DNA from: Squalus acanthias
Lineage: Eukaryota
NCBI GenBank assembly: GCA_030390025.1
Contig: CM059443.1
Span: forward strand, 50,406,001 to 50,470,000
Reading direction: 5' to 3'
Length of the DNA: 64,000 nt
Below are positions 9,081-56,149 of the stretch, one piece after another. Under the pieces are notes generated by a model, which did not search any database, was not told the origin of the DNA, and worked only from the letters and a program-made list of their open reading frames with translations. Both the position numbers and the translations under genes were made by a program. Within the stretch, counting starts at the first letter, position 1. Each line of letters begins with the position of its first letter.

Positions 9081-9526
9081 TCAGGTTTCCTCCATTTTAG
9101 CATAAATAGGATTTTCTTCCATTTTTAACGGGCCAGGTCGTGGATCATCTTCCTCCAGCTGGGACTGTGTCACCGCGTCTACCGGGCAGCCTATCAAAGA
9201 ATAAATCTGCTCATTGGACAAAGCAACGGGATCCTCCTTACTGTCCTCTTTGGGCTGTGATTGGCCGTCTGGTTTGAGTTCAGCAGCTGAAGAGGTTTCA
9301 ACCTGCCGTCCATGGTCCGTGTGGTCTCTGCCTAGATATTAAGAGAGGAGATCACGTTTGATGGGTTCACTTCCAGTGGGGGACAGATAATGAAAGTGGA
9401 CTGTCTCGTTACTTGAGATAAAGGTCCAGGAGCTTTAGAACAGACACAGTGTTGACTGAGAGGATTATACTGAAAGATTGCAACGACTTACATTTTACTC
9501 CCTGGATTTCAGTTTTGTCTCCATCA
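9081..9526 (-). CDS. Gene A last two cytoplasmic exons (35 and 251 nt), ending QIYSLI...EENPIYAKMEET*
   Basis: 9526-9492 (ttcttag|...AAAT|gtaagt) and 9331-9081 (tatctag|...TGA) continue the frame. They are absent from the ORF track. Confidence 0.82.
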
Positions 9527-12500
9527 CTAAGAAAACAGAAAATTAAAACATGTGAATAATGAGTAACATAAGATTCAAACAATATCAAACCATTGTAAGT
9601 GGAGACTAGATTAGCTCACTTTCTCCCCAGAGCCTGGATTTCAGTCCAGCCCAGACTGAAATTCTCTCATTCATTTTCTCTCTCTCTGTCTCTCTCTCTC
9701 TCTGTCTCTCCGACTCTCGTTCTNNNNNNNNNNNNNNNNNNNNNNNNNNNNNNNNNNNNNNNNNNNNNNNNNNNNNNNNNNNNNNNNNNNNNNNNNNNNN
9801 NNNNNNNNNNNNNNNNNNNNNNNNNNNNNNNNNNNNNNNNNNNNNNNNNNNNNNNNNNNNNNNNNNNNNNNNNNCGTCTCTGTCTCCGTCTGTGTCTCTC
9901 ACTGTCTCTGTCTCTCTCTCTGTCTCTCTCTCTCTCTGTCTCTCTCTCTTTGTGTCTCTGTCTCTCTGTCATTGTCTCTCTGTCCCTATCTCTTTCTCTC
10001 TTGCTTTGTCTCTCTCTCTCTCTTTCTATCTTTGCTATGTGAGCAGTCCTCTCTACAATGAGTTTTCCCAGTCCCAATCCAATTCCTTGCCTAAAACTGC
10101 CCATCATTCAGTAAAATATTTGGACGAAATTGATCATTATCGTCAAATACGCCAAAATATTGTCCTGACAAAGTGTAAAAGAAAATAACTTCACACGGGC
10201 ACAGTGAAAGGAGCTATTCTGATATTGGGATAAAGGAGCACTATCAGGTCAGAGGGCAGAGTGATTTACACGGCCTCCAGCCATTCTATACCTGACTTAG
10301 AACTGTTCGGTTGTGAGATTGGCTGCACAGCCTGGAAATGTTTTGTGCTGGGTGGTGGAATAGATTAGTACGGCCCTTTCATATTTTAGGATCTGTTCTC
10401 AAATCAAGTCCAGAATATTGGGAATAAAAGTCTCTCTCTGTGCCTCTATTACTGTCTGTCTGTCCCTGTCTCTTTGTCTTTCTCTGTCTCTTTCTCTCGA
10501 AGGGTCCTTGATGAAATAAGTTTAGTCATCTCGTTCCAGTTTGTAGCTCGTGTGAGCCACAGTACAAAACTACCGCTAAATTGGCACTTTCACTCAAACA
10601 GGCCATGAGTTGTGAGAAGTGAAATGTCCGAGCTCCCTCCTGAGTTTGGAGTTGAGGAGCATTGTTGGGACAGTCCAGAGGGAGCTTTACGCTGCACCTA
10701 ATCTGGAGTGCTCCAAATGATACTGTGTGGCCACAGTGGAAAAGTAATCCATTTGCAGAGTGGGCTCCCCTCACCTTCATTACATTAACAATCTCCGAAC
10801 CCTCCATCGCAAAACAAACCCGTGGTCAGTGTTGAACGTTGCTGGGGCCGACAGCTGTCACTCTGCTTACCCTTTGACCATTGACTCTTCGATCAAACAG
10901 TACACATGCTCTGTAGAGTCAGACTTTGGGCCAGTGCTCTCCATTCCTTCACCAGGCCTTGGCTGGCTCGATGGCGTTGGAACTCTCGTCACCGAGTACG
11001 CAACATGCTCGTTGTCATCGCTCTGATCCCTTCTGGGAACCACAGAGTACGGGAAACCTAGACAGAAGGACGAGTAGACGATGTGTGCTTTTAGTTTCAA
11101 CTCTCAAAGGGACAGGCTTGGAAGAGCTGGGCAGTAATTCTAGTCACTTACATTCAGCCACCTGTGTCAGCTGCACATCACCGGCCCTACAGTTCGTAAA
11201 GAAAAGCAACCTGTAAATGTCCCATTAAATGAGGAAAACTATACAGAAAGTCTGCCTGAAAACTGAACAAATCCCATCCCTACCTGGGTCCTGGTGCTGA
11301 GGATCCTTCACAACACATGCCATAAGATTGGAAAGATAAATTTAAAAGTCTTTGTAAGGAGTCTGCACTTACAATTTTCTAGATTTAGAGCAAACATTTT
11401 AAAGCTCTTGCTTACCTTTGGCAGCTTGTCGTTTCCTTTGGATTATGCAAAGTGCCCCAACAATGCAAAGTACCCCAACAATGCAAATGATCACAACCGC
11501 ACACGCTATGGCTACTTTCACAGGTGTGGCAGTGTCTGGGCCTGCAGAGGAGAAGCAACATTAAGTTCAGTCTGTGCAATCCCGTGTTATATGTACAGCT
11601 GATCACACTGGTTACCTGGGCTGAGGAACAGACATTTCCGGTTAGAATCTGGAAAAGTGCAATGGCGAAGAAAGGAAATCGAACCAACTTTTAATGGGTA
11701 CAAACTGGACAACTGATCTGGAATCTATCAACTTTAATTTTTTTTATTCATTCATGGGACGTGGACGTCATTGACAAGGCCAACATTTATTGCCCATCCC
11801 TAATTGCCCTTGAGAAGGTGGTGGTGAGCTGCCTTCTTGAATCGCTGCAGTCCATGTGGTGAAGTTACTCCCACAGTGCTGTTAGGGAAGGAGTCCCAGG
11901 ATTTTGAGCCAGCGACGATGAAGGATCGGCGATGTACTTCTAAGTCAGGATGGTGTGTGACTTGGAGGGCAACTTGGAGATGATGGTGTTCCCATGAGCC
12001 TGCTGCCCTGTCCTTCTAGGTGGTAGAGGTCACGGGTTTGGGAGGTGCTGCCGAAGAAGCTTTGGCGAGTTGCTGCAGTGCATCTTGTAGCTGGTACACA
12101 CTGCAGCCAAGGTACGCCAGTGGTGGAGGGAGTGAATGTTTAAGATGTGGATGGGGTGCCAATCAAGCGGGCTGCTTTGTCCTGGATGGTGTCGAGTGTC
12201 TTCAGTGTTGTTGGAACTGCACTCATCGAGGCAAGTGGAGAGTATTCCATCACACTCCTTACTTGTGCCTTGTAGATGGTGGAAAGGCTTTGGTGAGTAA
12301 GGAGGTGAGACACTCGCTGCAGAATACCTAGCCTCTGACCTACTCTTGTTGCCACAGTATTTATGTGGCTGTTCCAGTTACGTTTCTGGTCAATAGTGAC
12401 CCCCAGGATGTTGATGGTGGGGGATTCGGCAATGGTAATGCCATTGAATGTTAAGGGGAGGTGGTTACACTCTCTCTTGTTGGAGATGGTCATTGCCTGG

Positions 12501-15500
12501 CACTTATGTGGCGCGAATGTTACTTGCCACTTATCAGCCCAAGCCTGAATGTTGTTCAGGTCTTGCTGCATGCAGACACGGACTGCTTCATTATCTGAGG
12601 AGTTGCGAATGGAACTGAATACTATGCAGTCATCAGCAAACATCCCCACTTCTGTCCTTATGATGGAGGGAAGGTCATTGATGAAGCAGCTGAAGATAGT
12701 TGGGCCTAGGACACTGCCCTGAGGAACTTTTGCAGCAATGTCCTGGGGCTGAGATGATTGGCCTCCAACAACCAGAACCACCTTCCTTTGTGATAGGTAT
12801 GACTCCAGCCAGTGGAGAGTTTACCCCCTGATTCCATTGCCTTCAATTTTACTAAGGTTCCTTGATGCCACACTCGGTCAAATGCTGCCTTAATGTCAAG
12901 GGCAGTCACTCTCACCTCCCCTCTGGAATTCAGCTTTTGTCCATGTTTGGACCAAGGTTGTAATGAGGTCTGGAGCCAAGTGGTTCTAGCAGAACCCAAA
13001 CTGAGCATCAGTGAGCAGGTTATTGGTGAGTAAGTGCCACTTAATAGTACTGTCGACAATACCTTCCATCACTTTGCTGATGATTGAGAGTAGACTGATG
13101 GCGCGGGAATTGACCGTTTTGGATTTATACTACTTTTTGAAGACCGGACATACCTGGGCAATTTTCCACTTTGTCGGGTAGATGCCAGTGTTGTAGCTGT
13201 ACTGGAACAGCTTGGCTAGAGGCACGGCTAGTTCTGCAGCACAAGCCTTCAGCACGACAGCCGGGATGTTGTCGGGGCTCATAGCCTTTGCTGTATCCAG
13301 TGCGCTCAACCGTTTCTTGATAGCACGTGGAGTGAATCAAATTGGCTGAAGACAGGCTTCTGTGATGGTGGGGACCTCAGGAGGAGGCCGAGATGAATCA
13401 TCCACTCGCCACTACTGGCTGAAGGTGGTTGCAAACACTTCAGCCTTGTCTTTTGCACTCACGTGCTGGGCTCTGACATCATTGAAATGGGGCTGTGCAT
13501 GGAGCCTCCTCCCGTTAGTTGTTTAATGGTCCACCACCATTCACGATGTGGCAGGACTGCAGAGCTTTGATCTCATCCATTGGTTGTGGGATCGCTTTAC
13601 TCTGTCTATAGCATGCTGCTTCTGCTGTTTAGCATGCATGTATTGTAGCTTCACCAGGTTGGCACCTCATTTTTTGGTACGTCTGCTGCTGTTCCTGGCA
13701 TGCTCTTCTACACTGCTCATTGAACCGGGGTTGGTCCCCTGGCTTGATGTTAATGGTAGAGTGAGGGATATGTCGGCCCATGAGGTTACAGATTGTGATG
13801 GAGTGCAATTCTGCTGCCGCTGATGGTCCACAGCACCGCATGGATGTCCAGTTTTGAGCAGCTAGATCTGTTCTGAATCTATCCCATTTAGCACGGTGGT
13901 AGTGCCACACAACACGATGGAGGGTGTCCTCAGGATGAAGACGGGTCCTCATCTCCACAAGGACTGTGCGGTGGTCACTCTTACCAATACTGTCATGGAG
14001 AGATGCATCTGCGACAGGTAGACTGGTGAGGACGAGGTCAAGTATGTTTCTCCCTCGTATTGGTTCTTTCACCACCCGCCGCTGGCAGCTATGTCCTTCA
14101 GGGCTTGGCCAGCTCCGTCAGTAGCGGTGCTACCGAGCCACTCGGTGATGGATATTGAAGTCGCCCACCCAGAGTACATTCTGTGCCCTTGCTACCCTCA
14201 GTGCTTCTTCCAAGTGGTGTTCAACGTGGAGGAGTACTGATTCATCAGCTGAGGGAGGGCGGAAGGTGGTAATCAGCAGGAGGTTTCCTTGCCCATGTTT
14301 GATCTGATGCCATGAGACCTCTTGGGGTCAGGGAGTCAATGTTGAGGACTCCAAGGGCCACTCCCTCCAACTGTATACCACTGTGCTGCCACCTCTGGTG
14401 GGTCTGTCTTGCCTGAGGGACAGGCCATACTTAGGGATGGTGATGGAGGAGCCTGGGACATTTCGTGAAAGAATTATTTATATTATTTATATTGAATTAT
14501 TTATATTAAATGAGTCGCATTGTTTCTAGATTGTATCACTTACTTTGAGTATTTGTACGAGTTAAGCTGCTGGTCACTGAGGAGAATCCAGATGTTGAGG
14601 TGGGGGTGTCTGAAGATTTACCACTGCTCATTACACTGGTTACCTGGGCTGAGGAACATACTTTTCTGGTTAGACTCTGGAATAGTGCAATGGCGAAGGA
14701 AGTAAATGAAAGCAACTTATAACGGCTAAAAACTGTACAACTGATCTGGAATGTCTCAGTTTGAATTATTGATATTAAATGATTCACATCATATTCTAGA
14801 TTGTATCGCTTACTTTGAGTATTTGTACGAGTTAAGCTGCTGGTCACTGAGGAGATTCCAGATGTTGAGGTGGGGGTGTCTGAAGTCTCTGCACTCGCCT
14901 CTGTCACAGTAAGGGAGATGTTTGCTGCAATCTTCCAGACAGGTTTCCCTGAATCCTGACCGTGGACAGCACAGAGATACTTCCCAGTGTCCACCACATC
15001 CGCTGAGTGAATAGTAAGGTTGTGAGACTGGGGTCTAGCAGTAGGATTGTCTGAGCTTTGGGCAGAGATTCTTTGTGACGACCTTCTATCCACACAGCAG
15101 CGTGTGTTAATTTTTGCCTCCTTTTCCTCAATGTGAACAGAGTGCAGACACTTGGAAACGTTTCCAGATCTGATCCAAAACAGAGTGAAGGGGAGCTTTT
15201 TTGTATTCTCAAACTGGCAGGGTAAAGTCACATTCACTCCCTCTGAGGAGATTTCTTCAGTAGAAAATATTTCATCTGAATGTATAAACAACATTTACAA
15301 GAACATTTATTAATATAATAATCTTCATTGCGGTAGTTTGTCAAACGATTTCCTAAAGTCCATGTACAGTATATTCCCTGCATTCCTCCATTTACCATAT
15401 CTGTTACCTTCTCGACGGTTTTTCAACCTCAATCATCCTCTTTGAAATCCGTGCCAGCTACTTATCACTATTTTCTCTTTATCTATATACATGGTTATTT

Positions 15501-18500
15501 CATCTTAATAAAGACCCTAAAGTTTTCCCAATGACAGTTATCTGCCCTAAAACCTCCTCTAATATCTCCCCAACACCTCCCAATATCTCCTCTAACATCT
15601 CACCTTATATCTCCCCTAAAGTCCCGGCAATAACTTCCCCGATACCACCCCATACTTCCCCTGATATCTCCTCCGATACTTCCCCGATCCCTCCCCCGAT
15701 ATTGCCCCAGTACACGTACCACTCTGGATTATCACAAAGAACAAGTCGTGGTTTTCACATCCCTCTCCTGACAGTGTGAGCCAGGACGGACAGTTCGATG
15801 ATCCTCCGTCTGTGGAATCCTGAGCCGAGCAGGTAAATACCATCGAGTTAAACGTCTCCACATCGAATGTCAGAGACTGAGACTCCATTTGTTCTTCATT
15901 TAATTTGCATTTACTAGACTTTGGTTTGCTGGGCCTTTTTCTCAACTTAGGACTGATGTTTTCACCAAATTTCCTTTCCTTCTTACATTTTATTTTGTCC
16001 ATTTCTGCTCCGAGATCAGTGGAGCTGCACAAGGTTACTTCATCCCCAGCACCAGTGGGCACGTTGCACTGCAGAGTGGTGACATCTCCTGGTCCTCGGG
16101 AGAAGAGATAAGTGGATCCTGCAGGGAAAGGGCAGAATCGGATAGAGATAAATAACATCCAACACAGGAAAGATCATTAAACACTCAATGTGACACAAGC
16201 CTCTCACAGTAAACGAAGGAATCATACTCTTGGTAATAGGCCAGTTTATTGTTCCTTTCATAGACTTCTTTGCCACAGTCTATAAATTAGCATCCCTCTC
16301 CATTCTCAGCCTTCTACACTGTTCCAACAAAGCTCAACGTAAGCTCGAGGAACAGCACCTCATAGAAGCATAGAAGATAGGAGCAGGAGTAGGCCATTCG
16401 GCCCCTCGAGCCTGCTCCGCCATTTAATGAGATCATGGCTGATCATCCAAATTCAGTACCCTGTCCCTGCTTTCTCCCCATATCCCTTGATCCCTTTAGC
16501 CTTAAGAAATATATCTATCTCCTTCTTGAATATATTTAATGAATTGGCCTCAACTGCCTTCTGTGGTAGAGAATTCCACAGGTTTACCACTCTCTGGGTG
16601 AAGAAATTCCTCCTCATCTCAGTCCTAAATGGCTTACCCCTTATCCTTAGACTGTGACCCCTGTTTCTGGACTCACCCGCCATCGGAAACATCCTTCCTG
16701 CATCTAGTCTGTCTAGTCCTGTTAGAATTTTATAAGTTTCAATGAGATCCCTTCTCATTCTTCTAAACTCTAGCGAATATAAGCCTAATCGACCCAATCT
16801 CTCTTCATACGTCATTCCTGCCATCCCAGGTATCAGTCTGGTAAATCTTCGCTGCACTCCCTCCATGGCAAGAACATCCTTCCTCAGATAAGGCGACCAA
16901 AACTGCACACAATACACAATACTCATCTTTCAATTAGGCACTTTACAGCCTTCTGGACTCAACATCGAGTTCAACAATTTCAGACCATAACCTCTGCCCC
17001 TATTTTTTCAGACAGCAGCTGTTGATGATTCTGCCATCCCCATTTGCAACATTTAACCACTCCTGCCTTCCACCCTATCACAGACCGTCCCTTTTCTTCT
17101 TTCCTCCCCGCCCCTCTTTCCCTGCCCCTGCACCTGGTTAAAATCTGTTACATCTCTAACTTTTTCCAGTTGTGACGAAGGATCACAGACCTGAAACGTT
17201 GACTCTGTTTCTCTCTCCACGGATGCTGCCTGACCTGCTGAGTGTTTCCAGCATTTTCTGTTTCTGTGCTGTAAATTAGCATATCCACTTGATGTTACCA
17301 ATTATTTTTTGTCTAATTACTTCTTCCAAATTGTTTCATTAACGCTTGTTGACAATGTCTATGTTTTCGGCCTTGTCGAAATGACCAACAATATCCTGTG
17401 TGATTACAATCACAGTGCGTTATCCTTCCTCAACCTCCTCAGCATCTCCAAGGCCCTTGACACAGTCAACCTCCGCAAATGCCTCTCCAATGGCCCACCT
17501 TTGTGGCACTGCCCGCAAATACATCCAGTCCTATCTGTCGCAGTGTAGCCAGCACATCCTCAGGAATCGCTCTTCTCCCGTGTCCAATGGTCGCCCCTCG
17601 TCCACCCAAGGCTCCATCCTTGCCCTATCCTATATTCCACCCATACGTGATGTCTCTCAGGAACGTTGTCAAGGAGTCAGCTTCTAAACGTAGCCAAGTC
17701 GATACCTCACTTCACCTCTCCATCAATGCCCTCAGTGCTGGACTGTCCGATTTCTTATCTGGCATCGGGTTCGGGAAAAACCAGGACTCTCCTCAGCTCA
17801 AAGTTGGGAAAGGCTAAGCCATCCCGTTCAGCTCCAGTACACACTGACCCTATTTGACCCTGAGCTGAACCTCAAACCCATATCCAGCCCACCACCAGAT
17901 GTCGTGACTTCCCCTCCCAAAGATTGCCTACCTCCATTCCTACCTCACCCTCAGTGCTGCTGGAACTCTCCTCCACAGCTTCATCTCCTCGACCACTGAC
18001 ATCTCCAATCCTTTCCTCATCGACCTCCTGAGCTTCACCGATAACAGACTCCAACTCAGCCGGAACCCATCACCCACATCCTGTCCCACACAGCATCCTA
18101 ATCACCAATCACTCCTGTCCTCACTGACCTCCCCCAGGCATTGAATTCAAAACTCCCCATTACACTCCTAGGGCAATGTCCTAGGCCCACCTATCTTCAG
18201 CTGCTTCATCAATGCCCTTCCCTCTATCATAAGGACAGAAGTGGGGATGTTCCCTGATGATTGCAGAGTGTTCAGCTCTATTCACAATTCCTCAGATAAT
18301 GAAGCAGTCCGTGCCTGCATGCAGCAACACCTGGACAAACATAGAAACATAGAAAAATCGGAGCAGGAGTAGGCCATTTGGCCCTTCGAGCCTGCTCCGC
18401 CATTCAATATGATCATGGCTGATCCTCTATCTCAATACCATATGCCCGCTCTCTCTCCATATCCCTTGATGCCTTTTGTGTCTAGAAATCTATCTATCTC

Positions 18501-21500: not shown

Positions 21501-23477
21501 TCCGCTGGGACATCTCCAGAATCCAGGGAATTTTGGTAAATTTTCACCAATGCATCCACTATCTCTGCAGCCACTTCTTCTAAGACTCTAGGATGCAGGC
21601 CATCAGGTCCAGGGGACTTGTCAGCCTTTAGTCCCATTAGTTTGCCTAGTACTTTTTCTCTAGTGATAGTAATTGTTTTAAGCTCCTCCCTCCCTATAGC
21701 CTGTTCATTATCAATTATTATTGGGCAACTTGAGCATCTGACAGGCACAATTCCCCCTGTAATGGCCCTCACAGACTTCACCCAGAAACTCTCCACTCAC
21801 TGACACAGATGTGTCAGTACTGCAGATCACTATTCCAATAGAGCTCGAATAAACACTGAATCACATCTCCCAGTCAGACTCGATTGTAACTCAGACATCA
21901 GCCGTGTTGGACTGAGGATAGGAGCAGACGTCACTTATCATTTCAGGAACTCAGTCTGTCTGCAGACTGCACCCACCACACACAGTCTGTTTAGAAAAAC
22001 CAGCAGCCAAATTACACAGAGACTGGTTACAAACCCCCCATTACACAGTCTGGATAGAGACCCCCCCATTACACAGTCTGGATAGAGACCCCCCCCATTA
22101 CACAGTCTGGATAGAGACCCCCCCCCATTACAGTCTGGATAGAGACCCCCCCCATTACAGTCTGGATAGAGACCCCCCCCATTACAGTCTGGATAGAGAC
22201 CCCCCCCATTACAGTCTGGATAGAGACCCCCCCCATTACACAGTCTGGATAGAGACCCCCCCCATTACAGTCTGGATAGAGACCCCCCCCATTACACAGT
22301 CTGGATAGAGACCCCTACCGCCCCCTCCAATCACAGTGTCAGTTCCCATTTCTTTACAGAAGAATCGTGAAATGGGTGGGTCTGTAATGTACAGAAGGAC
22401 CTGAGCTGCTCCATTTTGCCAGAGTTGCTGAATTCCAGCCCTGGTCCGTGTGGTGTTGTGGATCCTGCCCAGTGTGGTTTGCACCCTTTACACTTCTCCG
22501 CAGTATTTATTGGTGTGAGGCTCGGCTGAGTCATCAACCATAATTGTTACTTTAGAGTTCACAGTGATCGAGTCTGAGCACAAAATCTTACACAGAATTA
22601 CATAGAATGTACGGCACAGAAACAGGCCATTCGGCCCAACTGCTCCATGCCGGTGTTAATGCTGCACAGGAGCCTCATCCCACCCCTCTTCATCAAACCC
22701 TGTCAGCAAATCCTTCTCACGCTTCTGAATCTTCCACCATTTAATTCTTAAAGTGAGATATGATTCTGCAGTAAGCGAACTTGGGATAGGATCAGCGCTG
22801 TTCTCGTACTTCATCTCTGCGCTGTTTTAAAACAGGTGTTGAACCAAAGATGTTTGCAGCACTGAGGAAACCGTTCGGCCCATCGTGCCAGTGCTGGCTC
22901 TTTGCCAGAGCAAACCCATTGCCCCCCACTCTCCCCACAGCCCTGTATCTTCCTCTGCTTCAAATGTTTTTCCAGTTTTACTTCAAAAGATGTAAAGGTC
23001 TCTGCCTCAACCACCCCGTGTGATAAATTTTTGGGAACGAAGGGAATTAAGGGATATGGGGATAGTGCAGGAAGGTGGAGTTGAGGTAGAAGATGAGCCA
23101 AGATTTTGTTGAATGGCGGAGCAGGCTTGAAGTGCCAAATGGCCTGCTCCAGCTCCTATTTCTTATGTAAAACAACCCTCTGTGTGAAGAATTTTTTCCT
23201 AACCTGTCTCCTCACTCTCAGTGGCACTTTTGAACTGACGCCCCATGATTAAACCATGTTAAAATGGCCCAGCGAGGACTGTGATGCAAGCTCATTAAAC
23301 GTCCACACGAAAACAGCACTGATATCTTTCAATCCTTATATTTCTCCATTGGGATATAGATAGAAACTGATATTTCCAGATAAGAAATATGTTGCAGGTT
23401 AACGTAAAATATTAATCCTTACCTGTAGCATGTTGGAACAGAAGGAAAAGACCCACAAACAAAGCACCGAGCGCCAT
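9081..23477 (-). CDS. Gene A: type I transmembrane Ig-superfamily receptor (SP, atypical Ig domain, V-type Ig domain, S/T stalk, TM, Tyr-motif tail), ~545 aa, probably inhibitory
   Basis: Hand-spliced GT-AG exons with consistent phases: 23477-23423, 16118-15720, 15275-14814, 14676-14644, 11648-11616, 11541-11416, 11305-11284, 11186-11152, 11057-10871, 9526-9492, 9331-9081. They sum to 1638 nt (545 aa + TGA) with no internal stop. All exons and splice sites are conserved in paralogue B. An N-gap (9724-9874) lies in one intron. Confidence 0.85.
9665..10030. repeat. (CT/GT)n compound microsatellite containing assembly gap 9724-9874
   Basis: Visible directly. Confidence 0.95.
10871..11305 (-). 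CDS. Gene A cytoplasmic exons (22, 35 and 187 nt) with FPYSVV, VAYSVT and HVYCLI motifs
   Basis: Exons 11305-11284, 11186-11152 and 11057-10871 join in frame (phases 1-2, 2-1, 1-2). The 22-nt exon has a weaker AAG acceptor. Confidence 0.8.
11416..11541 (-). CDS. Gene A transmembrane exon GPDTATPVKVAIACAVVIICIVGVLCIVGALCIIQRKRQAAK
   Basis: 25 hydrophobic residues followed by a basic stop-transfer (QRKR). Acceptor ctcctctgcag|, donor AAAG|gtaagc. Confidence 0.9.
11740..14460 (-). mobile_element. CR1-clade family 2 LINE in the stalk intron of gene A
   Basis: RT ORF 12140-12781 (VPQGSVLGP/FADD) and EN-region ORF 13629-14075. The same insertion is in B and C, so it predates the gene duplications. 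Confidence 0.9.
14814..15275 (-). CDS. Gene A exon: V-type Ig domain D2 plus S/T-rich stalk
   Basis: VTLPC...LFWI...NLTI...DTGKYLC...ISLTV is a canonical V-set pattern. Acceptor cattcag|AT, donor CAAA|gtaagc, 462 nt, phase 1-1. Confidence 0.92.
15720..16118 (-). CDS. Gene A exon: atypical Cys-rich Ig-like domain D1
   Basis: Acceptor ccctgcag|GATCC, donor AGTG|gtacgt, 399 nt, phase 1-1. TTLQC and VFTC look like the B/F-strand Cys. 7 Cys; no C-strand Trp. Confidence 0.8.
16276..17270 (+). mobile_element. Penelope-like element remnant (GIY-YIG C-terminus plus pLTR) split by a CR1
   Basis: Peptide RKLEEQHL|IFQLGTLQPSGLNIEFNNFRP* joins across the insertion. Degenerate hammerhead core GTGACGA...TGAAAC at 17171-17200. 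Confidence 0.75.
16364..16921 (-). mobile_element. 5'-truncated CR1 family 1
   Basis: ORF 16453-16926 (YCVQFWSP...WNSLP); flanked by a CTCAT duplication (16359-16363 / 16922-16926). Confidence 0.9.
17360..18140 (+). mobile_element. Old, highly decayed L2-type LINE fragment
   Basis: Residual RT-like peptide LVEMTNNIL...ISKALDTVN resembling L2 'LxKVxNDIL...LSAAFDTVDH'. Confidence 0.5.
18165..19160 (+). mobile_element. CR1 family 2 fragment with a nested antisense CR1 family 1 (~18339-18995)
   Basis: Family-2 sequence stops and resumes at a repeated GGACAA. The inner ORFs 18432-19066 encode a CR1 C-terminus. Confidence 0.85.
19381..19850 (+). mobile_element. Near full-length tRNA-derived Deu-domain SINE (SacSINE1-like)
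   Basis: A-box-like GTGGTTCAGTGGG, B-box-like GAGTTCAAGAC, Deu-like core GTGCTGAGGGAGTGCCGCACTGTCGGAGGTGCC, L2-like tail ending TCTTTCTTT. Confidence 0.8.
20035..21720 (-). mobile_element. CR1 family 1-related LINE, frameshifted RT
   Basis: ORFs 20193-21796 with RT motifs; CATAAGAA tail at 20035. Confidence 0.9.
22034..22311. repeat. Minisatellite, 10 x 27-29 bp: C(6-9)ATTAC(AC)AGTCTGGATAGAGA
   Basis: Counted directly. Confidence 0.95.
23423..23477 (-). CDS. Gene A signal-peptide exon MALGALFVGLFLLFQHAT(G)
   Basis: ATG, 18 mostly hydrophobic codons, then a phase-1 donor ACAG|gtaagg. An upstream acceptor ttctctcacag| at 23533 implies a further 5' non-coding exon. Confidence 0.85.
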
Positions 23478-28948: not shown

Positions 28949-29394
28949 TCAGGTTTCCTCCATTTTAGCATAAATAGGATTTTCTTCCATTTTTAACGGG
29001 CCAGGTCGTGGATCATCTTCCTCCAGCTGGGAGTGTGTCACCGCGTCTACCGGGCAGCCTATCAAAGAATAAATCTGCTCATTGGACAAAGCAATGGGAT
29101 CCTCCTTACTGTCCTCTTTGGGCTGTGATTGGCCGCCTGGTTTGAGTTCAGCAGCTGAAGAGGTTTCAACCTGCCGTCCATGGTCCGTGTGGTCTCTGCC
29201 TAGATATTAAGAGAGGAGATCACGTTTGATGGGTTCACTTCCAGTGGGGGACAGATAATGAAAGCGGACTGTCTCGTTACTTGAGATAAAGGTCCAGGAG
29301 CTTTAGAACAGACACAGTGTTGACTGAGAGGATTACACTGAAAGATTGCAACGACTTACATTTTACTCCCTGGTTCTCAGTTTTGCCTCCATCA
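28949..29394 (-). CDS. Gene B last two cytoplasmic exons ending NPIYAKMEET*
   Basis: 29394-29360 and 29199-28949; QIYSLI and NPIYAKM conserved. Confidence 0.82.
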
Positions 29395-32300
29395 CTAGGA
29401 AAACAGAAAATTAAACATGTGAATAATGAGTAACATAAGATTCAAACAATATTAAATCGTTGTAAGTGGAGACTAGGTGAGGTCACTTTCTCCCCAGAGC
29501 CTGGATTTCAGTCCAGCCCAGACTGAAATTCTCTCATTAATTTTCTCTCTCTCTGTCTCTCTCCCTCTGAGTCTCTGATTGTCTCTCCGTCTCTCTTTCT
29601 CTCTGTCTCTTTCTCTGTCTCTCTCTCTCGCTGTCTCTCTCTGCCTGTCTCCCTGTCTCTCTGTCTGTCTATCTCACTGTCTCTCTCTGTCTCTCTGTCT
29701 GTCATTCCTTCCCTGTCTCTATGTCTGCCTCTCTCCCTGATCCTCTCTCCCTGTCTCTCTCTCTTTCTCTCTCTGTGTCACTCTCTGTCTGTCTGTCTGT
29801 CTCTCTCTGCCTGTCTCCCTGTCTCTCTCTGTCTGTCTCTCACATGTCTCCCTCGCTGTCTCTCTCCATTCACTCTGTCTCAGTCTCTTTGTGTCTGTCA
29901 TTCCCTCCCTGTCTCTATGTCTGTCTCACTATGTCTCTGTCCCTGACACTCTCTCCCTGTCTCTCTCTCTTTCTCTCTCTGTGTCACTCTCTGTCTGTCT
30001 GTCTGTCTCTCTCCCTGTCTCTCTATCTTTCTCTTTCTCTGTGTTGCTCTCTCTCTGTCTCTCTCTCCCTATCTCTATCACTCTTTGTCTCCCTCTCTCT
30101 CTCTCTTTGTCTCTCTCCCTGTCTCTCTATCTTTCTCTTTCTTTGTGTTGCTCTCTCTCTGTCTCTCTCTCCCTATCTCTATCACTCTTTGTCTCCCTCT
30201 CTCTCTCTCTTTGTCTCTCTCCCTGTCTCTCTATCTTTCTCTTTCTTTGTGTTGCTCTCTCTCTGTCTCTCTCTCCCTATCTCTATCACTCTTTGTCTCC
30301 CTCTCTCTCTCTCTTTGTCTCTCTCCCTGTCTCTCTATCTTTCTCTTTCTCTGTGTTGCTCTCTCTCTGTCTCTCTCTCCCTATCTCTATCACTCTTTGT
30401 CTCCCTCTCTCTCTCTCTTTGTCTCTCTCACTGTCTTTGCTGTGTGAGCAGTCCTCTCTGCAATGAGTTTTCACAGTCCCAATCCAGTTCCTTGCCTAAA
30501 ACTGCGCATCATTCAGTAAAATATTTGGACTAAATTGATCATTATGGTCAGATAAGCCAAAATATTTTCCTGAGAAATTAAAAAAAAAACTTCACACGGG
30601 CACAGTGAAAGGAGCTATTCTGATGTTGGGATAAAGGAGCACTATCAGGTCAGAGGTCAGAGTGCTTTACACGGCCTCTAGCCATTCTATACCTGACTTG
30701 GAACTGTTCGGTTGTGAGATTGGCTGCAAAACCTGGAAATGTTTTATGCTGGGTGGTGGAATAGATTAGTACGGCCGTTTAATATTTTAGGATCTGCCAA
30801 GTCCAAATTACTAGGAATAAAAGTCCTCTTTCTATATCTCCCTGGTCTCTATCTCTGTCTGTCTCTGTCGCACTCTCTGTCTGTCTCTGTCTCTTTCTCT
30901 CTGAGGGTCCTTGATGAAATGAGGATTGGGAGCAGTTTAGGATTCAGCAAAGGAGGACAAAGGGATTAATTAAGAGGGGGAAAATAGAGAATGAGAGTAA
31001 GCTTGCAGGGAACATAAAAACTGAATGTAAAAGCTTCTATAGATACGTGAAGAGAAAAAGATTGGTGAAGTCAAGTGTAGGTCCCTTGCAGTCAGAATCA
31101 GGGGAATTTATAATGGGGAACAAAGAAATGGCAGACCAATTAAATACATACTTTGGTTCTGTCTTCACAAAGGAGGACACAAATAACCTCCCAGAGATGT
31201 CAGGGAACATAGGGTCTAATGAGAGGGAGGAACTGAAAGAAATCAGTATTTGTACGGAACTGGTGTTAGGGAAATTGATGGGATTGAAGGCCGATAAATC
31301 CCCAGGGCCTGATAATCTACATCCGAGGGTACTTAAGGAAGTGGTCCTAGAAATAGTAGATGCATTACTGGTCATCTTCCAAAATTCTATAGACTCTGGA
31401 ACAGTTCTCATGGATTGGAGGGTATCTAACGTTACCCCACTATTCAAAAAAGGTGGTAGAGAGAAAACGGGGAATTATAGACTGGTAAGCCTGACATCGG
31501 TAGTGGGGAAAATGCTAGAGTCCTTTATAAAAGATGTAATAGCAGAGCACTTGGAAAACAGTGACAGGATCGGTCAAAGTCAACATGGATTTACAAAAGG
31601 TAAATTATGCTTGACTAATCTACTGGAATTTTTTGAGGATGTAACTGGTAAAATAGATAAGGGAGAACCAGTGGATGTGGTGTATTTGGACTTTCAGAAG
31701 GCTTTCAATACGGTCCCGCATAAGAGATTAGCGTGTAAAGTTAAGGCACACGGGATTGGGGGCAGGGTACTGACTTGGATAGAGAACTGGTTGGCAGACA
31801 GGAAGCAAAGAGTTGGAATAAACGGGTCTTTTTCCGAGTGGCAGGCAGTGACTAGTGGGGTACCACAGGGATCGGTCCTAGGACCCCAGCTATTCACAAT
31901 ATATATTAATGATCTAGACGAGGGAACTAGATGTAATATCTCCAAGTTTGCAGATGACACAAAGCTGGGTGGGCGTGTGTGCTGTGAGGAGGATGCCGAG
32001 AAACTCCAGTATGATTTGGATAGGTTGGGTGATTGTACTGCATTTGCCATGCATCTACCCAATGTGGATAAATGCGAGGTTATCCACTTTGGTGGCAAAA
32101 ACAGAAAGGCAGATTATTATCTGAACGGCAATAGATTGGGAGAAGGGGAAGTGCAACGAGACCTGGGTGTCCTTGTGCACCAGTCGCTGATGGTAAGCAT
32201 GCAGGTGCAGCAGGCGATTAAGAAGGCAAATGGTATGTTGTCCTTCGCAGCGAGAGGGTTCGAGTACAGGAACAAGGATGTCTTGCTGCAGTTGTACAGA

Positions 32301-35300
32301 GCCTTGGTGAGACCACATCTTGAGTATTGTGTGCAGTTTTGGTCGTCTTATCTGAGGAAGGATGTTCTTGCCATGGAGGGAGTGTAGCGAAGATTCACCA
32401 GACTGATACCTGGGATGGCAGGAATGACGTATGAGGAGAGATTGGGTCGATTGGGCTTATACTCGCTGGAGTTTAGAAGAATGAGAGGGGATCTCATTGA
32501 AACTTATAAAATTCTAACAGGACTAGACAGACTAGATGCAGGAAGGATATTCCCGATGGCCGGGGAGTCCAGAACCAGGGGTCACAGTCTAAGGATAAGG
32601 GGTAAGCCATTTAGGACAGAGATGAGGAGGAATTTCTTCACCCAGAGAGTGGTGAACCTGTGGAATTCTCTACCACAGAAGGCAGTTGAGGTCAACTCAT
32701 TAAATATATTCAAGAAGGAGTTAGATATATTTCTTAAGGCTAAAGGGATTAAGGGATATGGGGAGAAGGCAGGGACAGAGTTCTGAATTTGGATGATTTG
32801 CCATGATCTCATTGAATGGCGGAGCAGGCTCGAGGGGCCGAATGGCCTACTCCTGCTCCTATCTTCTATGATTCTATGATTCTATGAATTTGGTCATCTC
32901 GTTCCAGTTTGTAGCTCGTGTGAGCCACAGTACAAAACTACCGCTAAATTGTCACTTTCACTCAAACAGGCCATGAGGTGTGAGAAGTGAAATGTCCGAG
33001 CTCCCTCCTGAGTTTGGAGTTGAGGAGCATTGTTGGGAAAGTCCTAGGGAGCTTTACGCTGCACCTAATCTGGAGTGCTCCAAATGATACTGTGTGGCCA
33101 CAGTGGAAAAGTAACCCATTTGCAGAGTGGGCTCCCCTTACCTTCATTACATTAACAATCTCCGAACCCTCCATCCCAAAACAAACCCGTGGTCAGTGTT
33201 GAACGTTGCCGGGGCCGACAGCTGTCACTCTGCTTACCCTTTGACCATTGACTCTTCGATCAAACAGTACACATGCTCTGTAGAGTCAGGCTTTGGGCCA
33301 GTGCTCTCCATTCCTTCACCAGGCCTTGGCTGGCTCGATGGCGTTGGAACTCTCGTCACCGAGTACGCAACATGCTCGTTGTCATCGCTCTGATCCCTTC
33401 TGGGAACCACAGAGTACGGGAAACCTAGACAGAAGGACGAGTAGACGATGTGTGCTTTTAGTTTCAACTCTCAAAGGGACAGGCTCGGAAGAGCTGGGCA
33501 GTAATTCTAGTCACTTACATTCAGCCACCTGTGTCAGCTGCACATCACCAGCCCTACAGTTAGTAAAGAAAAGCAACCTGTAAATGTTCCATTAAATGTG
33601 GAAAGCTATACAGAAAGTCTGCCCGAAAACTGAACGAATTCCATCCCTACCTGGGTCCTGGTGCTGAGGATCCTTCACAACACATGCCATAAGATTGGAA
33701 AGATAAATTTAAAAGTCTTTGTAAGGAGTCTGCAATTACAATTTTCTAGATTTAGAGCAAACATTTTAAAGCTCTTGCTTACCTTTGGCAGCTTGTCGTT
33801 TCCTTCGGATTATGCAAAGTACCCCAACAATGCAAATGATCACAACCGCACACGCTATGGTTACTTTCACAGATGTGGCAGTGTCTGGACCTGCAGAGGA
33901 GAAGCAACATTAAGTTCAGTCTGTGCAATCCCGTGTTATATGTACAGCTGATCACACTGGTTACCTGGGCTGAGGAACAGACATTTCCGGTTAGAATCTG
34001 GAACAGTGCAATGGCGAAGAAAGGAAATCGAACCAACTTTTAATGGGTACAAACTGGACAACTGATCTGGAATCTATCAACTTTAATTTTTTTTATTCAT
34101 TCATGGGATGTGGGCGTCATTGACGAGGCAAACATTTATTGCCCATGCCTAATTGCCCTTGAGAAGGTGGTGGTGAGCCGCCTTCTTGAACCGCTGCTGT
34201 CCGTGTGGTGAAGGTACACCCACAGTGCTGTTCGGGAAGGAGTCCCAGGATTTTGATCCAGCGACGATGAAGTTTCGGCGATGTATTTCCGAGTCAGGAT
34301 GGTGTGTGACTTGGAGGGGAACTATGAGATGATGGTGTTCCCATGCACCTATTGCCCAGTCCTTCTAGGTGGTAGAGGTCGCGGATTTGGGAGGTGCTGC
34401 CGAAGAAGCCGTGGCGAGTTTCTGCAGTGCATCTTGTAGCTGGTACACACTGCAGCCACGGTACGCCGGTGGTGGAGGGAGTGAATGTTTAAGATGTGGA
34501 TGGGGTGCCAATCAAGCGGGCTGCTTTCTCCTGGATGGTGTCGAGCGTCTTCAGTGTTGTTGGAGCTGCACTCATCGAGGCAAGTGGAGAGTATTCCATC
34601 ACACTCCTTACTTGTGCCTTGTAGATGATGGAAAGGCTTTGGTGAGTAAGGAGGTGAGACACTCGCTGCAGAATACCCAGCCTCTGACCTACTCTTGTTG
34701 CCACAGTATTTATGTGGCTGTTCCAGTTACGTTTCTGGTCAATAGTGACCCCCAGGATGTTGATGGTGGGGGATTCGGCAATGGTAATGCCGTTGAATGT
34801 TAAGGGAAGGTGGTTAGATTCTTTCTTGTTGGAGATGGTCATTGCCTGGCATTTATGTGGCGCGAATGTTTCCTGCCACTTATCAGCCCAAGCCTGAATG
34901 TTGTCCAGGTCTTGCTGCATGCGGGCACGGACTGCTTCATTATCTGAGGGGTTGCGAATGGAACTGACCACTGTGCAGTCATCAGCGAACATCCCCGCTT
35001 TTGACCTTATGTTAGAGGGAGGTCATTGATGAAGCAGCTGAAGATAGTTGGGCCCAGGACACTGCCCCGTGGAACTCCTGCAGTGATGTCCTGGGGCTGA
35101 GATGATTGGCCTCCAACAACCAGAACCACCTTCCTTTGTGCCAGGTATGACTCCAACCAGTGGAGAGTTTACCCCCTGATTCCATTGACTTCAATTTTAC
35201 TCAGGTTCCTTGATGCCACACTCGGTCAAATGCTGCCTTAATGTCAAGGGCAGTCACTCTCACCTCCCCTCTGGAATTCAGCTTTTGTCCATGTTTGGAC

Positions 35301-38300
35301 CAAGGTTGTAATGAGGTCTGGAGCCGAGTGGTCTTTGCGGAACCCAAACTGGGCCTCAGTGAGCAGTGCTGCTTAATAGTACTGTCGACAACACATTCCA
35401 TCATTTTGCTGATGATTGAGAGTAGACTGATGGGGCGGGATTTGACCGTTTTGGATTTGTACTGCTTTTTGAAGACAGGACATACCTGGGCAATTTTCCA
35501 CTTTGTCGGGTAGATGCCAGTGTTGTAGCTGTACTGGAACAGCTTGGCTAGAGGTGCGGCTAGTTCTGGAGGACAAGTCTTCAGCACGACAGCCGGGATG
35601 TTGTCGGGGCCCATAGCCTTTGCTGTATCCAGTGCGCTCAGACATTTCTTGATATCACATGGAGTGAATCAAATTGGCTGAAGACTGGCTTCTGTGATGG
35701 TGGGGACTGCAGGAGGAGGCCGAGATGAATCATCCACTCACCACTTCTGGCTGAAGATGGTTGCAAACACTTCAGCCTTGTCTTTTGCACTCACGTGCTG
35801 GGCTCTGACATCATTGAGGATGGGGATGTGCATGGAACCTACTCCCGTTAGTTGTTTAATGGTCCACCACCATTCACGATGTGGCAGGACTGCAGAGCTT
35901 TGATCTGATCCATTGGTTGTGGGATCGCTTTACTCTGTCTATAGCATGCTGCTTCTGCTGTTTAGCATGCATGTATTGTAGCTTCACCAGGTTGGCACCT
36001 CATTTTTTGGTACATCTGCTGCTGTTCCTGGCATGCTCTTCTACACTGCTCATTGAACCAGGGTTGGTCCCCTGGCTTGATGTTATTGGTAGGGTGAGGG
36101 ATATGTCGGCCCATGAAGTTACAGATTGTGGTGGAGTACAATTCTGCTGCTGCTGATGGTCCACAGTACCTTATGGATGTCCAGTTTTGAGCTGCTAGAT
36201 CTGTTCTGAATCTATCCCATTTAGCACGGTGGTAGTGCCACACAACACGATGGAGGGTGTCATCAGGATGAAGACGGGTCCTTGTCTCCACAACGACTGT
36301 GCGGTGGTCACTCTTACCAATACTGTCATGGAGAGATGCATCTGCGACAGGTAGATTGGTGAGGACGAGGTCAAGTATGTTTCTCCCTCGTGTTGGTTCT
36401 CTCACCACATGCTGCAGGCCCAGTCTGGCAGCTATGTCCTTCAGGACTTGGCCAGCTCCGTCAGTAGTGGTGCTACCGAGCCACTCGGTGATGGATATTG
36501 AAGTCGTCCACCCAGAGTACATTCTTGGTCCTTGCTACCCTCAGTGCTTCTTCCAAGTGGTGTTCAACGTGGAGGAGTACTGATTCATCAGCTGAGGGAG
36601 GGCGGTAGGTGGTAATCAGCAGGAGGTTTCCTTGCCCATGTTTGACCTGATGCCATGAGACCTCTTGGGGTCAGGGAGTCAATGTTGAGGACTCCAAGGG
36701 CCACTCCCTTCCGAATGTATACCACTGTGCTGCCACCTCTGATGGGTCTGTCTTGCCTGAGGGACAGGCCATACTTAGGGATGGTGATGGAGGCGCCTGG
36801 GACATTTCGTGAAAGAATTATTTATATTATTTATATTGAATTATTTATATTAAATGAGTCGCATTGTTTCTAGATTGTATCACTTACTTTGAGTATTTGT
36901 ACGAGTTATGCTGCTGGTCACTGAGGAGATTCCAGATGTTGAGGTGGGGGTGTCTGAAGATTTACCACTGCTCATTACACTGTAGGCTTCGCAAAATCCC
37001 CCAGAAACTCGAACAGAACCCTAAAAGGAGTGATTTTTGGACCTTTCATACAAACTTGGGATGATGGGACCCAAGTGAAGTGATTTGAGGTAAAAACCTC
37101 AGTTTTGGACATTTTAAAGATCAGGGAAGAAAAGCCCTGAGGAAAATGACTTTTGAATCTTACTGTTGGGAAAGACACCTTTCACAGACACAAGACAGGC
37201 TGCGGAGGGGCGTGGCCAGGCAGTGGAAAGCTTTGGGTATTGGGGCCCAATCAAGCTGTCTGGGAATTGTTTACACTGCAATCCTACCAAGGAGGAAGAG
37301 ACAAACCCAAAGCCTCACACACACATCGAAATATGAATAATCCAAGACCCCCCTTTGAAATTCCCAGGCCCAAAAAGGATAGCAGAAGCCTGAAATCAAT
37401 AAAACATTTAGTACCCCGATTACTTCATCAAAAACCAATCAACCAGGTAGCCACAGGGACAGATTTACAAGCCCTCCAAAAACCTAGGACAATAGGGACA
37501 AGATTTGGCTGGCAGATAAAGGCCCCGCCTAAATGGGAAATATCGGAAGCCATCAGGACATGTTTAACACCAAGTTAAAGCCATCGAAACTGACAAGCCC
37601 ACCAAAACTAAGACAATGGAATAATCAGGGCTCAACTGAAATCTAAAGGAAACCGATTTAGTAAGGAGTTTTGGGCGCGAAAAGGACAAAGGGCCTCAAC
37701 AGTATAATTGGGGGCCTAATCCCCCAAGACAGGGTCTCTGGACTCTCTGACAACGCTCTCAACGCTCGCACAGCTCTCTCTCAGCTCTGTTCCAGCAAGA
37801 CACCACAAGCCACGAGCAGGAGGAGGAAAGAAGGCCAACAACTTCACAAGCAGACCAACATGTAATAAGAAACCAGAGCGACTGCCTCAGTGACCATCGG
37901 ACACCTCGCAGCAACAAGGGCCTTATGAAACCTTTTACTCAAAAGACTCTAAACCCTAACTCTCAACTGTCAAGGATTCGTTTGGTGAACATTATCCCTG
38001 ATCTCCTGAAACCAAAACCTAGCTAGATAGTGGGATTTTTGGGAGGGATAAGGTTTTTTTTGTATATTGTCCTTCTCCCTCGCCTGTACCGTATGTTTCC
38101 CAACCTGTGTTTAAGTGTTAAGTCTGTTTTAAGTTTGTTACCTTTTCTTTTAATAAAGTCAAAATTCTTTCATCAGAACCTGTTGTCTACTGCATCTTTG
38201 TTCACAACCCCTAAATAAGTCCAAAGTCTAAAACCAGGGGCGTGGGAGCGATTCGAGCCGCTCACTGAGTCAGAGGTGAAGGCTGACCCCACACACCACC

Positions 38301-41300
38301 CCCTACAACACTGGTTACCTGGGCTGAGGAACATACTTTTCTGGTTAGAATCTGAAATAGTGCAATGGCGAAGGAAGTAAATCAAAGCAACTTATAACGG
38401 CTACAAACTGTACAACTGATCTGAAATCTCTCAGTTTGAAATATTGATATTAAAAGATTCACATCATATTCTAGATTGCATCACTTACTTTGAGTATTTG
38501 TACGGGTTAAGCTGCTGGTCACTGAGGAGATTCCAGATGTTGAGGTGGGGGTGTCTGAAGTCTCTGCACTCGCCTCTGTCACAGTAAGGGAGATGTTTGC
38601 TGCAATCTTCCAGCCAGGTTTCCCTGAATCCTGACTGTGGACAGCACAGAGATACCTCCCAGTGTCCACCACATCTGCTGAGTGAATAGTAAGGTTGTGA
38701 GACTGGCGTCTAGCAGTAGGATTGTCTGAGCTTTGGTTAGAGATTCTTCGTGACGACTTTCTGTCCACACAGCAGCGTGTGTTAGAATGTGCCTCATAAT
38801 CCTCAATGTGAACAGAGTGCAGACACTTGTTGATGTTTCCAGATCTGATCCAAAACAGAGTGAAGGCGAGGTTTTTTGTATTCTCAAACTGGCAGGGTAA
38901 AGTCACATTCACTCCCTTTGACACTGTCAGCGACCAGGAGTTTTCTTCAGTAGAAAATATTTCATCTGAATCTATAAACAACATTGAAAAGAACATTTGT
39001 TACTAATTATTTAGAAGTGCTGTTCCCACATGTTATCCAGCTGTTTGATGTAAGTGTGAGTCTGTCTGTAACTAGCTGTATTATCAGCAGTGGAGACAGC
39101 AGGCGTGGGCCAGGGTCAAATCCTTGTTTGGAATATTTGTCTGATTTTCCCACCGTTAGATTAAACATTCCCCAGCTAGAGGCAGATTGTGTAAGATCAG
39201 GAAACACTCGGGGACTGAGAGCAAGGAGCGAGAAGACAGGACAAATAATGAAAGATCGAACACACAAAGGCAAAAGACAGGGGCAGACACTAAAGGACAG
39301 AGACAAGGGGGGGGAAGACTTCAAACTCGCTTCTCTGTATCTCGATACCTGGGAATTTTATCCCCCCGCCCAGATATTTCCCCAATACCTCCCCTGATAT
39401 CTCCTCCGATACTTCCCCGATCCCTCCCCCGATATTGCCCCAGTACACGTACCACTCTGGATTATCACAAAGAACAAGTCGTGGTTTTCACATCCCTCTC
39501 CTGAAAGTGTGAGCCAGGACGGACACTTCGATGATACTCCTTCTGTGGAATCCTGAACCGAGCAGGTAAATACCGTCGAGTTAACCGTCTCCACATCGAA
39601 TGTCAGAGACTGAGGCTCGGTTTGTTCTTCATTTAATTTGCATTTTCCACACTCTGGCTTACTGTGCCTGTTTGTCCAATTAAGACTGATATTTTCACAA
39701 AATTGCATTTCCTTCTCTTTATTCTCACATGTATTGTCAATTTCTGCTCCGAGAACAGTGAAGCTGCACAAGGTGACTTCATCCCCAGCACCAGTGGTCA
39801 CGTTGCACTGCAGAGTGGTGACATCTCCTGGTCCTCGGGAGAAGAGATAAGTGGATCCTGCAGGGAAAGGGCAGAATCGGATAGAGATAAATAACATTCC
39901 ACACAGGAAAGATCATTAAACACTCAATGTGACACAAGCCTCTCCCAGTAAATGAGCCTAGTGAGACCCCCACCACCCCCTTTACACATTGTGATAGACT
40001 GCCCTCCCATTACACAGTCTGAATCCAGTCCACACCACCCCCTCTCCCTGCCTCCATCACACAGGCCTGGACAGAGATCCCACCCCCACCATAACACATT
40101 CTGATCGAGACCTCACCCCCATCCCCATCATAGCCTGAACAGAAACCCTTTCACTGAGCCTGACTACAGTCATACATAGTACATAGGTTGAGGTTATTGG
40201 AAGTCAATCATCTCAGCTCCAGGACATCGCTGCAGGAGTTCCTCAGGGCAGTGTCAAAGCCCAACCATCTTCAGCTGCTTCATCAATGACCTTCCCTCCA
40301 TCATGAGGTGACACGTGGGACTGTTCACTGATGATTGCACAGTGTTCAGCTCCATTTCCAATTCCTCAGATAATGAAGCAGTCCGTGCCTGCATGCAGCA
40401 AGACCTGGACAACATCCAGGCTTGGGCTGATAAGTGATAAGTAACAGTCACACCACATAATGACCATCTCCAACAAGAGAGAGCCTAACCACCTGCCCTT
40501 GACATTTGATGGCATTACCATCATCGACTCTCCCACCATTAACATCCCGGGGTCACCATTGACCAGAGACTTAGCTGCAACAACCACGTAAATACTGTGG
40601 ATACTAGGGCAGGTCAGAGGCTGGGTACTCTGCGGCAAGTGGCTCACCTGACTCCCCAAAGCCTTTCCACCACCTATAAGGCACATGTCAGGAGAGTGAT
40701 GAAATACTCTCCACTTACGTGGATGAGTGCAGCTCCAAAAACACTCAGGAAACTCAACACCATCCAGGACAAAGCAGTCCACTTGATCGGCTCCCTATCC
40801 GTCCCCTTAAACATTCACTCCCTCCACCACTGGCACACCATGGCTGCAGTGTGTACCATCTACATGATAGTACCTCGCCAAGGCTTTTACGGCAGTATCT
40901 CCCAAACCCCCGACCTTCACCACCTATAAGAACAAGGGCAGCAGGTGTTTGGGAACACCATCACCTCCAAGTTTCCTTAAAAGTCGCACAACATTCTGAC
41001 TTGGAAATATATTGCTGTTCCTTCATTGTCGCTGGGTCAAAATCCTAGAATTGCCTACCTAGCAGCATTGTGGAGCACCTTCACCATTTGGAGTGCAGAA
41101 GAAAGGCCAAACCCAACTGACCTTCTCAATGGCAACTAGGGATTGGGCAATAAATGCCGGAATTGCCAGTGACACCCACATCCCGAAGAAAGATCAAATA
41201 AATATGAAGTAATCATCCACTTAATGAGGGAACTTAATTTAAGACGTGGCATTGAATACTGGTTCCTAACTTTCAGGGAGATTATAATAACTGATAATAG

Positions 41301-55880: not shown

Positions 55881-56149
55881 TGAAAGAATTATTTATATTA
55901 TTTACATTGAATTATTTATATTAAATGAGTCGCATTGTTTCTAGATTGTATCACTTACTTTGAGTATTTGTACGAGTTCAGCTGCTGGTCACTGAGGAGA
56001 TTCCAGATGTTGAGGTGGGGGTGTCTGAAGTCTCTGCACTCGCCTCTGTCACAGTCAGGGAGATGTTTGCTGCAATCTTCCAGACAGGTTTCCCTGAATC
56101 CTGACTGTGGACAGCACAGAGATACCTCCCAGTGTCCACCACATCCGCT

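Follow-up and report, generated by a model that had tools for sequence, protein, structure and literature searches.

What kind of protein is encoded by the Cys-rich exon on the minus strand of this 64,000-nt stretch of the Squalus acanthias genome (the window), and what is the exon's variable core for? A preliminary description had read the exon as a divergent Ig-like N-terminal receptor domain, a proposal that the gene context bears out strongly and the fold signals weakly. On balance, and with modest confidence, we read it as the membrane-distal domain (D1) of a type I receptor of sharks. The predicted fold of D1 is a divergent Ig sandwich, and the receptor is likely an inhibitory member of a paired family.

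The window is vertebrate DNA with 46% GC and many LINE fragments. When it was compared with itself, three related blocks were detected, mostly 92–97% identical where aligned (Table 1). Blocks A and B are intact tandem gene copies, and block C is a truncated third copy. A and B are unlikely to have arisen by false haplotype duplication, because both lie between the same two N gaps, their introns differ by 1–6% and each carries separate insertions. Copy C begins in the middle of the second domain (D2), where a LINE fragment adjoins it; its D2/stalk exon contains a stop, its last exon is disrupted and diverges past about 50590, and neither D1 nor leader was found for it within the window. The LTR-like element in the second stalk exon of gene B is 1.3–1.4 kb long in its two copies, the other of which lies at 47029-45658, also with TG...CA ends and a 4-bp target duplication.

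Table 1. Features of the receptor locus (positions are those of the window)
Feature	Position	Strand	Basis or remark
Block A	about 9–23 kb
Block B	29–43.5 kb
Block C	50.6–56.2 kb
Gene A leader exon (signal peptide)	23423..23477	-	tblastn with homologue leader, 89% identity; GT donor
Gene A exon 2 (D1, 7 Cys)	15720..16118	-	AG/GT ends, phase 1-1; homologues in the D1 sequence search 49–61% identical to D1 of B
Gene A exon 3 (V-set D2 with 5 invariant Cys, and first Ser/Thr stalk unit)	14814..15275	-	Pfam V-set
Gene A second Ser/Thr stalk exon, 105 nt, phase 1-1	14544..14648	-	homologue stalk match
Gene A transmembrane (TM) exon, no charged residue in TM	11416..11541	-	hydropathy
Gene A five cytoplasmic exons	9081..11305	-	five Tyr: four YxxPhi, terminal NPxY
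Gene A tail exons singly	11305-11284, 11186-11152, 11057-10871, 9526-9492, 9331-9081	-
Gene B, whole	28949..43520	-	526-aa ORF if interrupted stalk exon is skipped
Gene B leader	43520-43466	-
Gene B D1 exon, 405 nt	39453..39857	-	9 Cys (family-typical), 4 sequons
Gene B D2	38971-38489	-
Gene B TM	33890-33783	-
Gene B tail exons	down to 28949	-
LTR-like insertion in gene B second stalk exon	36981..38307		TG...CA ends, 4-bp target duplication
Copy C	50560..56161	-	3' half of D2 with stop, TM and tail exons

By homologue-guided mapping, gene A consists of 10 exons, with every splice site AG/GT and an Open Reading Frame (ORF) of 558 aa. Its product has the order of a type I receptor: leader, D1, V-set D2, Ser/Thr stalk, TM and five-tyrosine tail. 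All indels between A and B are multiples of three, and the tails differ at 6 of 176 residues. The D1 exon lies where the preliminary description had placed it, with 399 nt, a CAG acceptor and a GT donor; a 400-nt exon in phase 1-1 is typical of Ig domains. That it is spliced into the receptor is supported indirectly by the public models of other sharks, which join the same exons.

Some smaller features were also found along the gene. A 22-nt micro-exon (11305-11284) with a weak AAG acceptor is present in all three copies and is skipped in some homologue models. The D2 exon has tandem acceptors 6 nt apart (15281-15275 in A; 38971-38965 in B); gene A has lost the upstream AG, and 15 nt (five residues) are missing from the first strand of its D2. 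Just upstream of the TM acceptor, all three copies keep the remnant start of a further stalk exon (11620, 33969 and 53031).

A sequence search with D1 matched 17 proteins among 91 candidates, all of them from sharks. Profile searches also returned sharks throughout (28 of 28 and 22 of 22 matches), having scored only 8000 word-sharing candidates, and rays, chimaeras and bony fish may hold relatives. Among 1.84 billion representatives there were six matches, five from sharks and the sixth by chance. A 22-residue match in a repeat protein (P0020, E=2.7e-4) was rejected as chance. The relatives come from 13 shark species, nearly all named uncharacterized or generically labelled, and none was found outside sharks in these database searches. 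For example, LOC121271932 (Carcharodon), LOC125487102 (Rhincodon), LOC144480561 and LOC144480428 (Mustelus) and models from Pristiophorus and Heptranchias have the same leader-D1-V-stalk-TM-tail order, and the D1 of shark homologues is 39–61% identical to that of gene B. These are automatic models without an informative name, and they differ from gene A, whose 7-Cys D1 is derived. One Heptranchias protein (P0002) carries a tandem pair of D1-D2-stalk units. A tree built on D1+D2 from 21 rows, which leaves out fragments without both domains, places the window genes with those of Pristiophorus and Heptranchias (97/94). In the mainly open-access literature searched, neither a mention of six homologue LOC identifiers nor a description of this D1 receptor family was found. 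From the above, this is apparently an undescribed receptor family of shark IgSF.

The tails of A and B each contain five tyrosines, as four YxxPhi motifs and a terminal NPxY, with YAKM at the tail end; no strict ITIM or ITSM is present in either. Among 18 long tails of the family, YxxI/V motifs are conserved, a strict ITIM occurs in 6 and a YCLI-type motif in all 18, and NPIY is found in 18 of 18 full long tails. In 7 species, all of them with a long-tailed form as well, there are short-tailed forms whose TM contains Asp, Asn or His; the Heterodontus one, missed by the motif pattern, was read from its model. The putative activating residue of these siblings is thus acidic or polar, not Lys/Arg. 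Receptors with an Asp in the TM, for example CD16 and FcepsilonRI alpha, pair with FcR-gamma. In all four testable cases, the short-tail ectodomains group with the long-tail ones of the same species (support 100/99 or better). No short-tail gene was found within the 64-kb window. A pattern of conversion plus diversification has been described for the Ceacam paired receptors of Xenopus (available part of PMC5112662), and the shark family shares that signature, with short- and long-tail ectodomains alike within a species. The family thus likely works as paired inhibitory/activating immune receptors, as far as sequence can indicate. As a separate observation, the 35-nt tail exon at 9526-9492 (also at 29394 and 50895) is read in a different frame in the short-tailed Pristiophorus homologue P0005, and short-tail forms seem to reuse the long-tail exon out of frame in this case.

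D2 is, by its Pfam assignment, a V-set domain (27.6 and 33.5 bits against a gathering cut-off of 26; E=3.6e-6 for A), and D2 of a homologue model matches TCR V domains by Foldseek at E=1.6e-7, with TCR alpha V nearest in PDB. For D1 we predicted the structure from the gene B sequence with AlphaFold, using 18 sequences. Seven strands were obtained in the order A-B-C-(loop)-D-E-F-G, with a best mean pLDDT of 55.9 (47.1, 33.9, 31.0 and 29.3 in the other four models) and values below 50 at residues 35–65. When Cetorhinus D1+D2 was used, the D1 part was unfolded (pLDDT 22–33). Foldseek gave no match to the D1 model at E<=0.001, and NCX1 CBD2, which occupied its top rows, was not accepted as a relative (E > 0.001). 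With VIA-align, the top 50 structures are mostly Ig sandwiches (V- and I-type) without a stand-out; the best has Z 7.5, a level common for this tool, with rmsd 2.7 over 80 aligned residues, and none reaches Z 8. The D1 profile had three matches at E<=10 among 177,635 PDB sequences, all weak and all to F strands of IgSF proteins (titin, E=0.014; CEA; LRIG1). The sole PDB sequence match of D1 from A, a bacterial surface protein (E=0.32), was regarded as chance. Pfam reported no family at threshold for D1 of A or B, and below threshold Ig_2 in 4 and ig in 3 of 11 family members. Atlas scores for D1 are 0.87 or lower, and are leads toward the Ig clan only. The strand motifs named in the preliminary description (TTLQC, VTLCS and SMVFTC/STVFTC) are all present. 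Judging from these weak signals, D1 probably has an Ig fold, though it matches none of the well-known domains specifically. There is no support for a D1/D2 duplication, since their profiles show no similarity (probability 0.3%). A homodimer prediction for D1+D2 of a homologue, made without an alignment, scored 0.00 and is informative neither way.

The domain had been called Trp-less, which holds for the C strand; a Trp in the CPSW motif is kept in 20 of 22 D1 rows, and D1 of B holds an additional one, W60. There is precedent in the IgSF for domains without the C-strand Trp or without the B-F Cys pair that have formed new disulfides, as the available text on CD4/LAG-3 states (PMC10768021), so the absence of this Trp from D1 does not exclude an Ig fold. 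The C-strand Trp site is Leu-Cys in 20 of 23 D1 rows and Trp-Trp (29-30) only in the three Heptranchias rows, in which C30 and C72 are both lost. This one event suggests that a C30-C72 disulfide replaces the C-strand Trp.

The Cys counts of the preliminary description (7 in D1 of A, 9 in D1 of B) are correct. Its claim that B had gained a Cys pair must be reversed: of the 23 D1 rows of the family, 20 have C52/53 and 21 have C69, which means that A lost C53 and C69, and paralogue-specific disulfides stand only in the form of this loss. All nine B-type Cys occur in 12 of 23 distinct rows; by this comparison, nine Cys is the family norm and the 7-Cys D1 of A is a derived state. C17, C111 and C122 are invariant across D1 rows (C17 in 23 of 23), and C98 occurs in 20 of 23. 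C53 and C69 are both absent from A and also from Hemiscyllium P0023, which belongs to a different clade, and this independent co-loss suggests a C53-C69 bond. Against a rigid pairing scheme stand losses of a single Cys: C53 in Carcharodon, C72 in Mustelus P0014 and C98 in 3 Pristiophorus rows; the Carcharodon and Mustelus P0014 proteins each have an extra Cys at another position. In D2, five Cys are shared by all 22 rows, and with odd counts in both domains an interdomain or interchain bond is possible. We infer a pairing in which C17-C98 would be the canonical B-F bond, C30-C72 the stand-in for the C-strand Trp, C53-C69 a staple on the loop of about 35 residues that joins strands C and D, and C111-C122 the closure of the F-G loop, while C43 would stay unpaired and available for an interdomain or interchain bond. 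In gene A the C-D loop would be opened through loss of the C53-C69 staple. Pristiophorus models include TM-less isoforms and also D1-only isoforms, so D1 need not sit on D2.

In the core of D1, A and B differ as sharply as had been claimed, at 16 of 30 aligned residues compared with 11 of 101 in D1 outside the core (20 of 90 and 14 of 303 nucleotides, respectively), and the cluster has a scan permutation p=2.5e-4 that allows for the post-hoc choice of window. The core of A is very basic (13 K/R, 3 D/E), which is not peculiar to it: A reaches a net charge of +10, Heptranchias +9, and Heterodontus and C. punctatum +7 each, in a range from -3 to +10 across 23 rows. B does have more sequons (4 compared with 1 in A), but only NWT59 of the three extra ones lies in the core. 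Between species, the core has a p-distance of 0.71, against 0.43 in the remainder of D1 and 0.31 in D2, and the core exceeds the rest of D1 in 66 of 66 species pairs, which are non-independent. It is plausible, though no more than that, that the core is a hypervariable binding site. The within-species paralogue pairs of four other sharks show no marked core excess: Mustelus 2/32 in the core vs 7/100 in the rest, S. torazame 4/32 vs 7–8/86–89, Heptranchias 0/34 vs 2/101, and Pristiophorus at most 6/34 vs 10/99. In D2, the A/B differences peak at 15135-15076 (9/60 nt), past the C' strand, which is a second candidate binding patch.

The tail and the fold can each be read in another way. The long-tailed receptor might be co-stimulatory or adhesive (JAML- or CD28-like), acting through PI3K via the terminal YxxM, or its NPxY might be mainly endocytic. 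We consider this improbable: YAKM does end the tails of A and B, the language-model look-alikes of the full protein are JAML-like, G6f-like, BTLA and G6b clusters (0.94–0.96), and NPxY motifs mostly serve trafficking according to the available part of PMC8007030, but YxxM occurs in 6 of 18 long tails compared with 18 of 18 for the YCLI-type motif, and short-tailed siblings with a polar TM fit an inhibitory long form. As for the fold, there is a slim chance that D1 is a different Cys-rich beta fold whose Ig-like motifs are coincidental, as could be argued from the missing Pfam, Foldseek and D1-D2 profile matches, the unfolded Cetorhinus model and Atlas scores that are merely leads. Against it, the weak signals of five methods converge on the Ig clan, and the Trp of Heptranchias stands at the expected C-strand site.

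The core itself could be a low-constraint flexible loop, the A/B difference being an older tract between homogenised flanks or an import from another paralogue, with ligand binding placed on D2 or on the D1 framework. This is compatible with the receptor model and incompatible with a "hypervariable binding core". For A versus B, the core has dN 0.259 and dS 0.285 (dN/dS 0.91), where dS comes from 3.5 differences on 14.8 sites, few in number and with manual gap placement; outside the core, dS is 0.031, and the synonymous excess has p=0.0015–0.016 (Fisher on rounded counts). As dS in the core is as high as dN, an older tract among homogenised flanks fits at least as well as positive selection, and dN/dS is not significantly above 1 in any region, with D2 highest (2.29, p=0.13). 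The small core excess within other sharks and the low pLDDT at residues 35–65 point in the same direction, whereas C43, C53 and C69 are kept in the core across sharks despite the greatest between-species divergence, and the dS estimate is subject to the few sites noted above; we therefore regard the low-constraint loop as possible but doubtful. That gene A is a decaying duplicate, whose Cys-pair loss and core changes are neutral decay, appears very unlikely. Its dN/dS against B is near or above 1 in most regions, it has lost five residues of D2 and the upstream D2 acceptor, and the neighbouring copy C is broken; on the other hand, its ORF and splice sites are intact, its indels keep the frame, both Cys were lost together as in Hemiscyllium, and the tail is nearly unchanged.

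Under the favoured reading, that of an inhibitory receptor in a paired family, D1 would bind a cell-surface or pathogen ligand, probably via the exposed C-D loop. Upon binding, the tail tyrosines would be phosphorylated, phosphorylated YxxI/V would engage SH2 phosphatases and NPxY a PTB adaptor, and cell activation would be damped. Short-tailed siblings would signal through an ITAM adaptor, and gene conversion would keep the ectodomains alike within a species. A more far-reaching version seems rather unlikely to us: D1 would be a new Ig subtype, with a cross-sheet disulfide in place of Trp and a stapled, fast-evolving and germline-encoded binding knob, in a paired family specific to sharks. 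That family would be the counterpart, so far missing from sharks, of the NK or myeloid receptors of KIR/NITR type, and its activating members would rely on an acidic or polar residue in the TM.

For cartilaginous fish, the literature searched yielded few innate paired receptors (MDIR in skate; available part of PMC3031540). The family described here, with its matched long- and short-tailed members, is conserved in many lineages of sharks and has an Ig-type domain for which no database offers a family name. It could serve as a marker and ligand probe for NK-like, myeloid or thrombocyte cells of sharks. Its natural variants, Trp versus disulfide in Heptranchias and staple-on versus staple-off in B and A, make the structural claims directly testable. 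Lineage-specific expansion of IgSF receptors is a common vertebrate pattern, and the surprise is moderate.

D1 had been likened to shark VNAR, and both are indeed shark Ig-type domains with non-canonical Cys. As described in the available part of PMC12907318, VNAR is a RAG-rearranged V-D-D-D-J product without a conventional CDR2, and its variable Cys in CDR1/CDR3/FR2/FR4 come largely from the rearranged CDR3. In contrast, a single germline exon encodes D1, its C-D loop is long, and its Cys are fixed across the family. The exon ends in a splice donor with no RSS adjoining it (three relaxed RSS-like matches in the 64 kb, at 22560, 32066 and 61283, none beside D1 or D2), no VNAR is among the PDB sequence matches of D1, and the exons downstream encode V, stalk, TM and tail, not IgNAR constant domains. 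The resemblance is thus not borne out. CD4/LAG-3 share the loss of the C-strand Trp (PMC10768021, in part) and differ in architecture and tail, without a sequence match. The CD28 family has a single extracellular V domain (available part of PMC11599192), and the two-domain shark receptor falls outside that definition. CD200R is alike in its two Ig-type domains, its paired family and an acidic stretch followed by a terminal NPxY; its tail motif is given as EEDExxPYxxYxxKxNxxY in the available part of PMC8007030. Compared with this motif, the shark tail has the acidic stretch and NPxY without PYxxY (two further tyrosines); moreover, the V domain is second in the shark receptor, and there is no significant sequence match.

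The skate MDIR are multigenic activating/inhibitory receptors (PMC3031540, in part). No protein of MDIR, CD300, NITR or CEACAM is among the significant matches, nor did these database searches match a V domain of CD300/TREM/pIgR type. Unlike CEACAM, CD300, MDIR and NITR, the shark family has a nine-Cys pattern of its own in D1, lacks a strict ITIM in A and B, and carries Asp/Asn/His, not Lys/Arg, in the TM of the siblings. What the shark family has in common with the paired IgSF immunoreceptors (CEACAM1/3-type, CD300, skate MDIR and teleost NITR) is a tandem multigene cluster, long Tyr-bearing members beside short-tailed siblings, and ectodomains that are alike within a species.
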